64,000 nucleotides of DNA from Eledone cirrhosa (Eukaryota), in contig CAXHJY010000301.1 of assembly GCA_964016885.1 (NCBI GenBank), positions 1 through 64,000 on the forward strand, in the 5' to 3' direction. Of this stretch, positions 24,031 through 63,976 are shown in pieces. The translations under genes were made by a program, and so were the position numbers. Under the pieces are notes generated by a model. The model made no database searches and was not told the DNA's origin. It saw nothing but the letters and a program-made list of their open reading frames with translations. The stretch's first letter is position 1. Every line of letters starts with the position of its first letter.

Positions 24031-24523
24031 ATGTAAGTATGTATGTATACGTACATACATATATGTATACAGACGTACAGTAGCATGCATATATATATAT
24101 ATATATATATATACACATATATACATACAGGTACACATACATATATGTACGTATCAGTTTAGCGGACACTTATTATAACGCCCACTTTGTCCGTTTGTAA
24201 ACAAACTGACAGCCTGAATTTATGCCGTACAGTGTTAAGGCAACCACGTCACCTTTTTGTTCAACACTGACACAGGAACGATGTACTAGTTTCAAGCTTG
24301 TTAGCTATCATCAGCACCGTATACCCTTCTGCCAGATGGTTGAACGTTCGAACGTATGTGTACCTGTATGTATATATGTATATATATATATATATATATA
24401 TATATGCATGCTACTGTATGTCTGTATACATATATGTATGTACGTATACATACATACTTACATTTAAGTAAGTGCCGTACTAAGAGTGAGAAATGAAATT
24501 TCGTTTTCATTTGATTACAACTT
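24031..24523. mobile_element. Small fold-back element with 110-bp inverted arms, a hammerhead and a one-sided tail
   Basis: Arms 24031-24140 and 24354-24463; unique tail 24464-24523. Confidence 0.7.
24279..24319 (-). ncRNA. Type I hammerhead ribozyme (family 2)
   Basis: CGGUG CUGAUGA uAGCU-aaca-AGCUu GAA AC-ua-GU A CAUCG. Confidence 0.85.
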
Positions 24524-24650
24524 ATATATATATGTATATATATATATATATATATGTATATATATATATATATATATATGTATATATATATATATATATA
24601 TATATATATATATGTATATATATATATATATGTATATATATATATATATA

Positions 24651-26102
24651 TCATCATCATCATCATCATCAACGTTTAACGTCCGTGTTCCACGCTTGCA
24701 TGGGTTTGGACGGGGGTAGTCCCACTTGAGGCAAGAGTGATTGTCTTGCTCGCATAGGACTGTCTGGCAGGTTTTCTACAGTTGGATGCCCTTCCTAACA
24801 CCAACCACATTTACAGTGTGGGTCTGGGAGGTTTTTACCGTGTTGCCTACACGGCCACATTACAGCGTGGACTGTGTGTTTTTTTGTCGTGACACCTACA
24901 CGATCTCATTTGTTTCGGCCTCGATGGCGCGACACCAACACAACTTTACATAGAACGGGGTGGTGTGGATGGGGTGGGGGTGGGGGTGGTAGGACGGGGT
25001 GTATTTTGTTAGAGATGCCTACTGGCTGGAGTAGGTTTTACTATATATTTAGGTAAGGCGGGTCTTCTCTGTTACTGAGTACCGCCAAAGGTCTCGGTCC
25101 AGTGACATTGTCTTGGAGAGGTGTAAGTGTGTGATGTCGGAGTTTATCAGCTCGTCCCAGGTTTTTCTAGGTCTGCCTATTCCGTGACTACCGTCTATCT
25201 TTATTGCCCTGCACTTTGTTATACAGCTATCGACTTTCATGCGCATCACGTGTCCATACCAACGTAGCCTTCTCTCGAGTAAACAACATCTGATCCCTCT
25301 TATCTCTAATTTTTTCCTTAGTTCGTTTATGCTTTGCCGTTCACGTATATTACTGTTACACATCCAGCGGAGCATGCAAGCTTCGTTCCTCTCTAGTCTG
25401 CGTATATCCTCTGCACACAATGCCCAGGTCTCACTGCCATGCAGCATTGCTGTTCGTATGCAGGCATCGTACAACCTGCCTTTCATTTTTAGTGAGAACC
25501 CTTTAGCAGCTAATAGTGGTATAAGCTCTCTGAACTTTTTCCAACCAGTTCTGACTCTAGCTACAGTACTTTCAGAGCACCCTCCCCCACTGCTGATTTT
25601 ATCGCCCAGGTAACTGAAGCTGTCCACTATTTCTATAGAACCCTCTGCGCAATTGAAAGAGCTAGTAGTTTGTGGGCACTTGCTGCTACTTATTGCACCA
25701 GAGCACCGGCCACATGTAAAATCTATGTTCTTAGTTAGCTTACCTGTGATCCCACTACATCTTTTATGCACCCATACTTTGCATTTAGGACATAAAATGG
25801 AGTTTCTACCTACGCCTTTCCTACACACCGAGCACGACCATTTCCCAGAAGGGACCGCCGCCTTGTTTTCTTTCCTACAAACTAGTACTTTGGTCTTAGC
25901 CAGGTTAATTTTAAGTCCTTTTGACTCAAGGCCGTGCTTCCATGTTTGGAATTTCTTCTCTAGCTCGGCCATTGATTCCGCTATGAGTGTCAGGTCGTCT
26001 ACGTATAGGAGTTCCCATGGGCAGCCTGTCTTGAACTCCTCTGTTATAGCCTGAAGGGCAATAATAAATAGTAGTGGGCTGAGAACAGAGCCCTGATGGA
26101 CA
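24651..26102 (-). mobile_element. RTE LINE family A, 5'-truncated
   Basis: ORF 25049-25972; catalytic motif reads YVDD here; (CAT)n tail. Confidence 0.95.
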
Positions 26103-28871
26103 TGTATATATATATATATATATGTATATATATATATATATATGTATATATATATATGTATATATATATATGTATATATATATATGTATATATGTATATA
26201 TATATATGTATATATATATATGTATATATATATATATATATATGTATATATATATATATGTATATATATATATATATATATATATATATATATGTATATA
26301 TATATATATATATATATATGTATATATATATATATATGTATATATATATGTATATATATATATGTATATATATATATGTATATATATATATATATATATG
26401 TATATATATGTATATATATATATATGTATATGTATATATATATATGTATATATATGTATATATATATGTATATATATATATATGTATATGTATATATATA
26501 TGTATTGTATATATATATATGTATTATATATATATATATGTATGTATATATAGTATATGTATATGTATATATATATATATATGTGTGTATATATATATAT
26601 GTATGTATATATATATGTATGTATATATATATATATGTATGTATATATATATATGTATGTATATATATATATATGTATGTATATATATATATATGTATGT
26701 ATATATATATATATGTATTGTATATATATATATATGTATGTATATATATATATATGTATGTATATGTATATATTATATATGTATATATTATATATGTATA
26801 TATATATATGTTGTATATATATATATATATGTATATTTATATATATATGTATATGTATATATATATGTATATTATATATATATATGTATGTATATATATA
26901 TATATGTATAGTATATATATTATATGTATATATGTATATATATATATATATATGTATATATATGTATATATATATATATATATATATATATGTATATATA
27001 TATATGTATATATATATGTATATATATATGTATATATATATATATATGTATATATATATGTATATATATATATATATATATGTATATATATATATATATA
27101 TATGTATATATATATATATATATATATATATGTATATATATATATGTATATATGTAATATATGTATATATATATGTATATATATATATATATATACATAT
27201 ATGTAATATATATGTATATATATATGTACTATATATGTATAATATATATGTATATATATGTATATATATGTATGTATAATAATATGTATATAGATATATA
27301 TGGTATGTATATATATATATGTATGTATATATATATATGTATGTATATATATATGTATGTATATATATGTATGTATATATATATGTATGTATATATATAT
27401 ATGTATGTATATATATATGTATATATATATATATATATATATGTATGTATATATGTATGTATATATATATATGTATGTATATATATATGTATGTATATAT
27501 ATATATGTATGTATATATATATGTATGTATATATATATGTATGTATATATATATGTATATATATATATATGTATGTATATATATATATATATATATATGT
27601 ATGTATGTATATATATATGTATGTATGTATATATGTATGTATATATGTATGTATGTATGTATATATATATGTATGTATGTATATATATATATATATATGT
27701 ATGTATGTATATATATATATATATATCTGTATGTATATATATATGTATGTATATATATATGTATATATATGTATGTATATATATATGTATATATATATAT
27801 GTATGTATATATATATGTATATATATATATATATATGTATGTATATATATATATATATATATATATATATATGTATATATATATGTATATATATATATAT
27901 GTATATATATATATATATGTATATGTATATATATATATATATATGTATATGTATATATATATATAATATATGTATATATATATATATGTATATGTATATG
28001 TATATATATATATATATATGTATATATATATATGTATATGTATATATATATATATATGTATGTATATATATATGTATATATATATATATATGTATGTATA
28101 TATATATGTATATATATATATGTATATGTATATATATATATATGTATGTATATGTATATATATATATATGTATGTATATGTATATATATATATATGTATG
28201 TATATGTATATATATATATATGTATATATATATGTATATATATATATATATATATGTATATATATATATGTATATATATATATGTATATATATATATATA
28301 TATATGTATATATATGTATATATATATATATATGTATATATATGTATATATATATATATATGTATATATATATGTATATATATATATATATGTATATATA
28401 TATGTATATATATATATATATATATGTATATATATATGTATATATATATATATGTATATATATATATGTATATATATATGTATATATATATATATGTATA
28501 TATATATGTATATATATATATATATGTATATATATATGTATATATATATATATATATATATATGTATATATATATGTATATATATATATATATATATGTA
28601 TATATATATGTATATATATATATATATATATGTATATATATATGTATATATATATATATATATATGTATATATATATGTATATATATATATATATATATG
28701 TATATATATATGTATATGTATATATATGTATATGTATATATATGTATATATATATATATATATATGTATATATATATGTATATGTATATATATGTATATG
28801 TATATATATGTATATATATATATATATATATATATATATATGTATATGTATATATATATATATATATATGT
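26103..28871. repeat. ~2.8-kb (TA)n/(TATG)n array
   Basis: Directly visible; length may be mis-assembled. Confidence 0.97.
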
Positions 28872-29009
28872 ATTAGAAAGTGAGGTTTTTTTTACAAAAT
28901 GAAAAATAACCGAGGTGTCCTACACGAGTGGAAGTATAAAGAAAAAGGGATGAAATCGAAAATGCAACTGAAGTCTTATTTTTTTAAAAATATATATATT
29001 TATTTGATT

Positions 29010-29047
29010 CCTTTACCGGTTTCGCAGTTCTTCTGCTTTTCAAAAGG
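29010..29047 (-). ncRNA. Type I hammerhead, U3-A8 core variant (family 3)
   Basis: CCUU UUGAAAA GCAG-aagaa-CUGC GAA AC-cg-GU A AAGG. Confidence 0.75.
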
Positions 29048-62174: not shown

Positions 62175-62647
62175 GTGATTTTGGATGGCCATTGACTCTT
62201 AAGAGCTCCTTTGCCCTTTGCCCTTTAGCCTTAGTCAAGGCAGAATTCTAGGAGAAGGAAAACTCTGATATAACACCTGCAACCCTGATGGTATCCAATG
62301 ATGTTGACTTGTTCTTCTTTTTGGTAAATAGCATCTTGGTTAAGAGAGTGGGACTGGCTTTGTGCAGTGCCTTTGCTCACTATAAAAGCTTCACGGCACA
62401 GGCATTGCTTTATATCTGGAGATCTCTCTGCACTTGTCCTCACATGGGCCCAGCACTATGTGTCAATAATTGTCCTACCATGGGCCTAGCACTATGTGTC
62501 AATAATTGTCACAGGTGTAGTGTTTGTACCAGAGGTTTCAAGTCGCTGGCTGGACTAAAAAGTCACACTCGTTCAGCGCTTCGGTAGGGGTTATCCTACA
62601 TGGATGTAAAGTAGTGGCCGTACTCGAAAACGAGTTGGCAGCCACCA
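62175..62647 (+). mobile_element. Third copy of the RTE-derived non-autonomous element, with 5' inversion
   Basis: 62221-62647 is the reverse complement of 7515-7912, whereas 62175-62220 matches 7925-7970 in the same orientation. Confidence 0.8.
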
Positions 62648-62860
62648 TATATATATGTATGTATGTATATATATATATATATGTATGTATGTATATATAT
62701 ATATATATATATATATGTATGTATGTATGTATATATATATATATATATATATGTATGTATATATATATATATATATATATATATATATATATATGTATGT
62801 ATGTATATATATATATATATATATGTATGTATGTATGTATATATATATATATATATATAT

Positions 62861-62915
62861 ACTCTTTTACTCTTTTACCTGTTTCAGCCATCCGGCTGAG
62901 GCCATGCTGGGGCAC
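62861..62915 (-). mobile_element. Extreme 3' tip of a retroelement with (GTAAAAGA)n tail
   Basis: actcttttactcttttacctgtttcagccatccggctgaggccatgctggggcac between TA arrays; family assignment from memory only. Confidence 0.45.
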
Positions 62916-63747
62916 ATATATGTATGTATATATATATATATATATATATATATATATATATGTATGTATATATATATATATATATATATATATATATATA
63001 TATATATATATATATATATATATATATATATGTATGTATATATATATGTATGTATATATATATATATATGTATGTATATATATATGTATGTATATATATA
63101 TATATATATATGTATGTATATATATATGTATGTATATATATATATATATATATATGTATGTATGTATATATATATATATATATATATATATATATATATA
63201 TATATATATATGTATGTATGTATATATATATATATATACATATATGTATGTATGTATATATATATATATATATATACATATATGTATGTATGTATATATA
63301 TATATATATATATACATATATATATATATGTATATATATATATATATATATATATACATATATATATATATGTATATATATATATATGTATATATATATA
63401 TATATATGTATATATATATATATATATATGTATATATATATATATATATATATATATATGTATATATATATATATATATATGTATATATATATATATATA
63501 TATGTATCTATATATATATATGTATATATGTATATATATATATATATATATATATATGTATATATATATATATGTATATATATATATATGTATATATATA
63601 TATATGTATATATATATATATGTATATATATATATATGTATATATATATATATGTATATATATATATATATATATGTATATATATATATGTATATGTATA
63701 TATATATATATGTATATATATGTATATATATATATATATATATATAG

Positions 63748-63976
63748 GAACCAGTAAGACCCCGACAGCTGAGCTCAAGCCGTTTCGACGGCTAATTCTG
63801 GACATATACATACATATATATATGTATGTATATTCTGCGTCCAGAATTAGCCGTCGAAACGGCTTGAGCTCAGCTGTCGGGGTCTTACTGGTTCTTATTA
63901 CCCACTCTACTACCTCAAGTATTGAGTACTTTGGTGCGTTATGGTCCACCTGGTTCCTTACCACATTTCCTTCGTT
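63748..63976. mobile_element. Tiny fold-back element with the 3' half of a hammerhead and a one-sided tail
   Basis: Perfect 56-bp arms 63748-63803 / 63839-63894; tail 63895-63976. Confidence 0.75.

Follow-up and report, generated by a model that had tools for sequence, protein, structure and literature searches.

An inverted, 5′-truncated copy together with a tail on one side only has been described as typical of Penelope-like elements (PLEs) in the parts of three publications covered here (PMC3846280, PMC8557442, and PMC8969392), and an inverted 5′ copy has been noted for a Hydra element (PMC8557442, File S1). For PAc, a Poseidon element of Anolis carolinensis, the covered part of the published study (Frangieh et al. 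2024, PMC11167929) reports nicking and extension of both target strands, along with two internal start sites of reverse transcription, the interval between which forms the tail. Since the shape (Arkhipova 2013; Craig 2021) and a two-start mechanism (Frangieh 2024) are both published, neither the architecture nor the core inference drawn from it is new; the architecture itself is textbook and carries little weight as a discovery. How PLEs build their inverted repeats and tails is called open in the covered parts of PMC8557442 and PMC11167929. This work concerns a 64,000-nucleotide stretch of the Eledone cirrhosa genome (contig CAXHJY010000301.1, positions 1 to 64,000 of the forward strand; referred to here as the window), which contains five such inverted pairs. 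The new part, as far as the literature searched shows, is a conserved hairpin at the boundary of the tail, which may mark where copying begins. This hairpin is a precise, mutable candidate for a start-site element in a clade never studied biochemically, and it gives curators a rule for where Hydra consensus sequences end, with and without the tail.

Five inverted pairs and their clade

Arms were called by pairwise alignment, and the inserts are numbered I1 to I5 along the window. All five inverted, 5′-truncated pairs that the first-pass annotation had placed here were recovered, each with a tail beyond one arm only (57, 59, 103, 161, and 78 nt in I1 to I5), and every tail matches itself alone within the window. 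The annotation's premise that PLE insertions often carry an inverted copy and a 3′ tail thus agrees with 5 of 5 inserts and with the three publications cited above. In I1, the tail-less arm (24031 to 24140, minus strand) is the 3′ end of a longer copy, to which the spacer (24141 to 24353, minus; hammerhead core at 24314, predicted cut at 24284) also belongs; the tailed arm (24354 to 24463, plus) is followed by the tail (24465 to 24521, plus), and the 110-bp arms, mostly TA/TG/CA low complexity, differ at 2 positions. I2 begins with its tail (28876 to 28934, minus) and tailed arm (28935 to 30151, minus; a U3-A8 hammerhead at 29043), continues through a center of short re-copied arm-end pieces in both orientations, as read from the sequence (30125 to 30197), and ends with the tail-less arm (30177 to 31393, plus; hammerhead at 31285, cut at 31314); these 1,217-bp arms have 4 mismatches and 5 small gaps. 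The 807-bp arms of I3 have 10 mismatches and 1 gap, the tail-less one at 34072 to 34878 (minus; hammerhead at 34165) and the tailed one at 38235 to 39042 (plus; U3-A8 hammerhead at 38949, cut at 38987), with the tail at 39043 to 39145 (plus). I4 has the longest arms (1,956 bp, 2 mismatches, 1 gap): after the tail (41986 to 42146, minus), the tailed arm (42147 to 44102, minus) comprises the end of an endonuclease open reading frame (ORF), the 3′ untranslated region (UTR), and a hammerhead at 42232, while the tail-less arm (44180 to 46134, plus) is followed by a 9-nt direct repeat of its last bases, up to 46143, and then by (TA)n. In I5, the identical 56-bp arms lie at 63748 to 63803 (tail-less, minus) and 63839 to 63894 (tailed, plus), the tailed one being 5 nt longer (from 63834) and carrying the 3′ half of a hammerhead with a cut placed by eye at 63878; a perfect 30-bp microsatellite palindrome (63804 to 63833) forms the center, and the tail follows at 63895 to 63972 (plus).

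Hammerheads were sought with a descriptor of our own in the window and in 10 shuffles, which gave 11 matches in the window against 0 to 2 per shuffle. I1 to I4 carry the full motif, and I5 carries only the 3′ half, which the scan missed and which was read by eye. The earlier claim that the ribozyme sense points outward in each insert holds for all 7 motifs matched within the five inserts but needs adjusting for I1, where the motif occurs once and in the spacer rather than in the arms, and for I5 with its half motif. In both arms of I4, core position 4 is C instead of U (42194 to 42232 and 46049 to 46087). No hammerhead was found by Rfam among all 15 matches for 31180 to 39150 or, in another scan, among the best 150 of 585 matches; the matches listed are microsatellite-driven microRNA-type and other subthreshold ones only. 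U3-A8 hammerheads and hammerhead pairs on opposite strands have been described in the covered part of PMC4209133. As judged from these motifs, hammerheads would lie near the 3′ end of the elements, and the cuts given here are predicted ones. The one match from a metagenome scan, 22 nt to the 3′ half of the I4 hammerhead in a contig (L001, 2298 to 2360), is uninformative, as the contig is unrelated and shows no full core upstream by eye.

Hydra-clade PLEs are marked by a CxCX5C linker, a GIY-YIG core free of a CCHH pair, and CxxC and CxH motifs near the conserved E and N (PMC8557442, as far as covered). All three endonuclease ORFs of the window (I3, I4, and an element at 56692) have this linker before the endonuclease, at most one Cys and no CCHH pair inside the core, and the CxxC and CxH motifs near E and N. 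In I3 (ORF at 34880 to 36115, plus, 5′ truncated) and in the element at 56692, the thumb end of the reverse transcriptase (RT) is in frame with the C-terminal endonuclease; I4 keeps the endonuclease only, I1, I2, and I5 lack such an ORF, and truncation has removed the RT core from all copies in the window. By eye, the two longer ORFs fit the Hydra-clade alignment rows of PMC8557442. For the ORF at 56694, 38 longer relatives (500 to 946 amino acids [aa]) were present among 707 candidates, and the RWK motif occurs in 4 of the 5 full-length relatives aligned. The Pfam GIY-YIG model gave a weak match, below cutoff, for I4 and none for I3; the protein search with the I4 endonuclease returned no match among longer proteins, and scans of viral and prokaryotic contigs returned no relatives. 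Naiad/Chlamys PLEs (N-terminal endonuclease, no canonical hammerhead) are ruled out because the endonuclease is C-terminal in the ORFs and hammerheads occur, and Neptune/Nematis PLEs (CX2-5CxxC linker, CCHH motif) are ruled out by the linker and core of all three ORFs. By these protein motifs, I3 and I4 are assigned to the Hydra clade; I5 would likewise belong to it, and I2 probably does, both by their 3′ ends only. The assignment covers I2 to I5, the I1 tail lacking the hairpin described below. The PLE identity proposed for the inserts is supported.

The I3 ORF stays open across two long low-complexity insertions that are missing from relatives. One falls within the thumb end of the RT and the other precedes the linker, and they recall the in-frame inserts of Adineta elements.

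That the five inserts are unrelated, as the first-pass annotation put it, is true insofar as blastn finds no match among them. However, the endonucleases of I3 and I4 are homologous (46% identity by tblastx), and the tails of I3, I4, and I5 have a hairpin in common, so the five inserts are not independent samples; at least three of them belong to one clade. The described Hydra-clade elements (e.g., Hydra-1_Obim and Penelope-13_HM; Craig et al. 2021, PMC8557442) share the linker, the core, the CxxC and CxH motifs, the 3′ hammerhead, and the (TA)n target. Going by the covered parts of that paper, the present inserts differ in their tails (57 to 161 nt, versus 30 to 40 nt) and in a long 3′ UTR (approximately 3 kb behind the ORF in I3, whereas Hydra elements are generally below 3 kb in all), and a tail hairpin is not mentioned in those parts. 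In Penelope-13_HM, both copies end approximately 41 nt past the cut and neither is tailed. Pen2a_Av of Adineta vaga, from the Penelope/Poseidon clade, is unlike the inserts described here in having visible 8- to 10-bp target duplications and a 31-bp tail that overlaps the ORF start (Arkhipova et al. 2013, PMC3846280, as covered).

The tail boundary and its hairpin

The tail-less ends of I3 and I4 align with each other, 55 and 47 nt past the hammerhead cut, respectively, and the two tails start with the same 8 letters, CTGCTCTG (p = 0.0022; 1 of 10 pairs tested). CTGCTCTG opens a bulged hairpin made up of RCTC, an upper stem, a loop, a 2-nt bulge, and GAGY. On both strands of the 64 kb, a strict descriptor of this hairpin has four matches, all in tails behind a hammerhead: I3 (39047 to 39068), I4 (42143 to 42110), I5 (63904 to 63927), and a non-inverted element (59519 to 59539). 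After an AT-rich run, the hairpin starts 5, 4, and 10 nt past the tail-less end in I3, I4, and I5, respectively. Three of its base pairs change on both sides among the four strict matches; plain alignment of the hairpins is not structure-true and was excluded from the pair counts. Across 30 shuffles, strict matches averaged 0.63 and never exceeded 3; the match count is not an independent test, since the descriptor was drawn up after the sequences had been seen, which lessens its value for the argument. The informative part of the scan is that no matches occur elsewhere in the window.

A loose version of the hairpin lies 6 nt past the tail-less end in I2 (from 28929 in the tail); this match is weak because the relaxed descriptor also matches 3 of 4 non-tail control regions. 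Folding of whole tails is unremarkable in three of the five inserts (z scores of −0.8, −1.0, and +0.2) and gives z scores of −2.7 for I1 and −2.6 for I3. Five of the eight hammerhead-bearing units of the window are inverted, and the other three (23024 to 23995, 49420 to 49696, and 56692 to 59578) have no inverted partner. One of these, a single fragment at 49420 to 49696 (minus) that stops 43 to 49 nt past its cut, ends at a place homologous to the tail-less ends of I3 (p = 0.003) and I4 (p = 0.019), which indicates that the tail-less end needs no inversion. The element at 56692 to 59578 (plus), which bears the fourth strict hairpin, is of Hydra type, with an ORF end at 56694 to 57545, two diverged terminal repeats, and a hammerhead at 59425.

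Six novel Hydra consensus sequences were viewed by eye, sea cucumber and coral families being among the hairpin carriers: Hydra-2_Ajap and Hydra-2_Amil have a clear hairpin after an AT-rich run, Hydra-1_Crog has a loose one in the same position, and Hydra-1_Obim, Hydra-1_Ajap, and Hydra-1_Amil stop 36 to 47 nt past the cut, at an AT-rich point and without the hairpin. Among 24 published families, 10 end 30 to 48 nt past the cut. Public contigs and reads were aligned to the left arm of I4 in 4 of 13 runs, the raw reads being of reduced representation only. These data confirm the I4 family. Contigs from two runs (X1 and X4) reach the same I4 tail end with no differences, and related subfamilies retain 42058 to 42151 and diverge just inside; in a third run (X11), 852 reads keep the I4 tail to 42151 and then diverge. 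Among the variants listed, both substitutions within the I4 hairpin fall in the loop, and a 1-nt deletion in the T run of the stem occurs in 84 of 1,554 reads (X11).

The claim that tail-less arms end at a fixed internal point gains support across families only, from I3, I4, and I5, whose ends lie 4 to 10 nt 5′ of the same hairpin, and loosely from I2. As far as end positions can tell, the tail-less ends support a fixed internal start. The hairpin was not found described in the literature searched, older PLE papers and some supplements lying outside that search.

Origin of the two arms

Two primings on opposite strands, one of them from a fixed internal start, are the best explanation for the inserts, and one to which we give slightly better than an even chance. 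Each insert would have arisen when a PLE integrated once into a (TA)n array. By analogy with PAc, the element endonuclease would nick both strands, and each 3′ end would prime RT on RNA of the same element. One priming would begin at a distal site and copy the tail, and the other would begin at the fixed AT-rich site directly 5′ of the bulged hairpin and omit it; the position of this site is seen in the ends, and a role for the hairpin in choosing it is conjectural. Short TA pairing with the target could aid the internal start, weak as the evidence for such pairing is. Both cDNAs would then stop early and, to judge from the junctions, become linked head to head through microhomology or repair by snap-back.

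A comparable scheme is known from L1 twin priming, in which two primings from two target strands are joined through microhomology, as proposed here. Twin priming inverts non-overlapping parts of one RNA, whereas here both arms copy the same 3′ end. With PAc (PMC11167929, as covered), the inserts share two starts that lie past the hammerhead and bracket the tail, nicking and extension of both strands, and an AT-rich target. In PAc, the start is located within the ORF, in an AC-rich stem-loop, and shares no homology with the target; the start proposed here is placed in an AT-rich run on the 5′ side of a hairpin, TA microhomology is present in 3 of 5 inserts, and in I2 to I4 no single ORF spans the hammerhead and the tail. 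The first-pass annotation had proposed two primings on opposite strands, which gains from the nicking and extension of both strands and the two starts reported in vitro; that evidence comes from another PLE clade, and five inserts, which are also not the independent dataset they were taken for, cannot separate two primings from fold-back of a cDNA. Its further suggestion that one priming starts at the RNA end is unsupported, as both PAc starts are internal. Nor is the self-complementarity of (TA)n required for the shape, which also occurs with the 8- to 10-bp target duplications of Adineta (PMC3846280, as covered).

TA microhomology may still help here. At the tail-less ends, TA-phase microhomology of 2, 4, 4, 5, and 0 nt (I1 to I5) was read by eye and is no more than suggestive. 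On the plus strand, G-rich flanks border I1 to I4 on either side and I5 on its left; these flanks indicate that the target as a whole is not inverted. At the inner junction of I4, there is a 3-nt microhomology, and public runs identify the 77-nt spacer (44103 to 44179, plus) as what naturally precedes this part of the element in the right, tail-less copy. The longer copy is the tail-less one in I1 and I4 and the tailed one in I3 and I5, and I2 is a tie with re-copied filler. The arms of I4 are 99.85% alike, compared with a range of 88 to 100% among family copies, which points to one event.

Several points weigh against two primings from a fixed start. The I1 tail has no hairpin by the strict or the relaxed descriptor, and its tail-less end lies 253 nt past the cut; in I2 and I5, the end follows the cut by 79 and 16 nt, respectively. 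When 1 outlier of the 24 consensus ends is dropped, 10 of the other 23 fall within 20 nt, a clustering with p = 0.06. In the public runs on I4, none of the loose ends listed falls at 42147, and the X1 and X4 contigs cross this position unbroken. Microhomology of at least 4 nt in 3 of 5 inserts gives p = 0.0013 with a threshold chosen afterwards, and the summed test gives p = 0.105. The in vitro two-start data come from a different clade, and the PAc starts lack homology to their target. In addition, in I2, I4, and I5, the two 5′ ends differ by at most 10% (p of about 0.0009 under a self-chosen null of independent log-uniform truncation), a coincidence not expected of independent primings, so that the near coincidence of inner ends in 3 of 5 inserts keeps fold-back in play.

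Under fold-back, a reading that we regard as possible but on the whole doubtful, a cDNA begun at the distal site would snap back and copy itself, the second arm would be cut or annealed at a TA-like site of the element itself, before the hairpin, and the center would later be trimmed asymmetrically. Besides the near-equal inner ends, palindromes cross the inner junctions of I1 (12 bp, near 24349) and I5 (30 bp), while 0 of 213 control windows reach 12 bp; in the I5 palindrome, the right half is G-rich like the flanks, and the left half, a flank-like microsatellite piece, is inverted together with the arm. The re-copied pieces at the I2 center also suit fold-back, as do published proposals of self-priming (PMC3846280) and of endonuclease resolution of the tail (PMC8557442), both in the parts covered, and simple fold-back from a tailed cDNA fits I3 and I5. 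However, the tail sits on the 5′-shorter copy in I1 and I4, which requires an extra central deletion, and a spacer that belongs to the tail-less copy, as in these two inserts, is not what simple fold-back predicts. The arms of I3 begin 3,356 nt apart, the junctions of I3 and I4 show no palindrome, and the non-inverted fragment at 49420 to 49696 stops where the tail-less arms do. When the junctions were folded as DNA, the result restated the arms and nothing more. Taken together, the near-equal 5′ ends and the palindromes of I1 and I5 indicate that the two arms are coupled, either by one complex acting on both strands or by snap-back.

It is quite unlikely that both arms once had tails and that one tail was lost by deletion between a TATA-like site and the flanking (TA)n. 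The 4- to 5-nt TA microhomology at 3 of 5 tail-less ends and the 9-nt slip in I4 would fit such a loss, but each of the five pairs has its tail on one side, even I4, which is very young (its arms differ by 2 substitutions), the window contains no pair with two tails, and a two-start mechanism has been shown in vitro for PAc. An assembly artifact from fold-back reads, or two independent head-to-head insertions in the same array, is the least credible origin: the region is repeat rich and no record among those listed spans the I4 inversion junction, but the arms of I1 to I4 differ by true substitutions, the mirror symmetry breaks off internally and gives way to unlike sequence past each arm, the two arms resemble each other far more than family copies do, and the shape has been published for many genomes.

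Returning to two primings, we put forward one extension tentatively, as an idea with clearly less than an even chance: Hydra-clade PLEs of molluscs, echinoderms, and cnidarians might share an undescribed cis element, a bulged hairpin onto which RT docks and which places the internal start immediately 5′ of itself, within the AT-rich run, at a point where pairing with a nicked (TA)n end is possible; one complex, possibly a dimer on one RNA, would run both starts simultaneously. If true, this would explain why exactly one arm has a tail and why the two cDNAs often stop together.

The surrounding array and other repeats

From approximately 19.6 kb on, the window consists of one large array of (TA)n/(TATG)n that is interrupted by many inserts, namely, 5′-truncated long interspersed nuclear element (LINE) fragments with RT domains and the hammerhead-bearing units; (TA)n flanks all five inverted inserts on both sides. 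At least seven 5′-truncated LINE copies, which fall into two subfamilies, end 3′ in (ATG)n, and have a PHD finger after the RT, are nested in the same (TA)n arrays between 18340 and 56200, and none of them shows a local inversion. At 60152 to 62179, the plus-strand microsatellite flips between C-rich and G-rich five times, so the array itself contains inversions without any insert. A weak inverted pair at 14264 to 14816 is not of the same kind as the five inserts.

The third unit without an inverted partner (23024 to 23995, minus) is a 312-bp tandem of 3.1 copies that are 99% identical, with a canonical hammerhead in 2 of 3 full units by our own scan; its arrangement resembles a retrozyme-like or tandem pseudo-long terminal repeat (pLTR) array. 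Within the 3′ UTR of I3, a 110-bp tandem (37432 to 38079) has four near-identical copies along with diverged ones. A 483-bp direct tandem in (TA)n at 49960 to 50817 has neither a hammerhead match nor an ORF of 120 aa. Elsewhere, a repeat of approximately 430 to 480 bp with microsatellite flanks forms a tandem pair at 7492 to 8591 and has one inverted copy 54 kb away, at 62180 to 62671, and a minisatellite at 10647 to 12069 consists of 59 copies of a 24-bp unit, with 97% matches.

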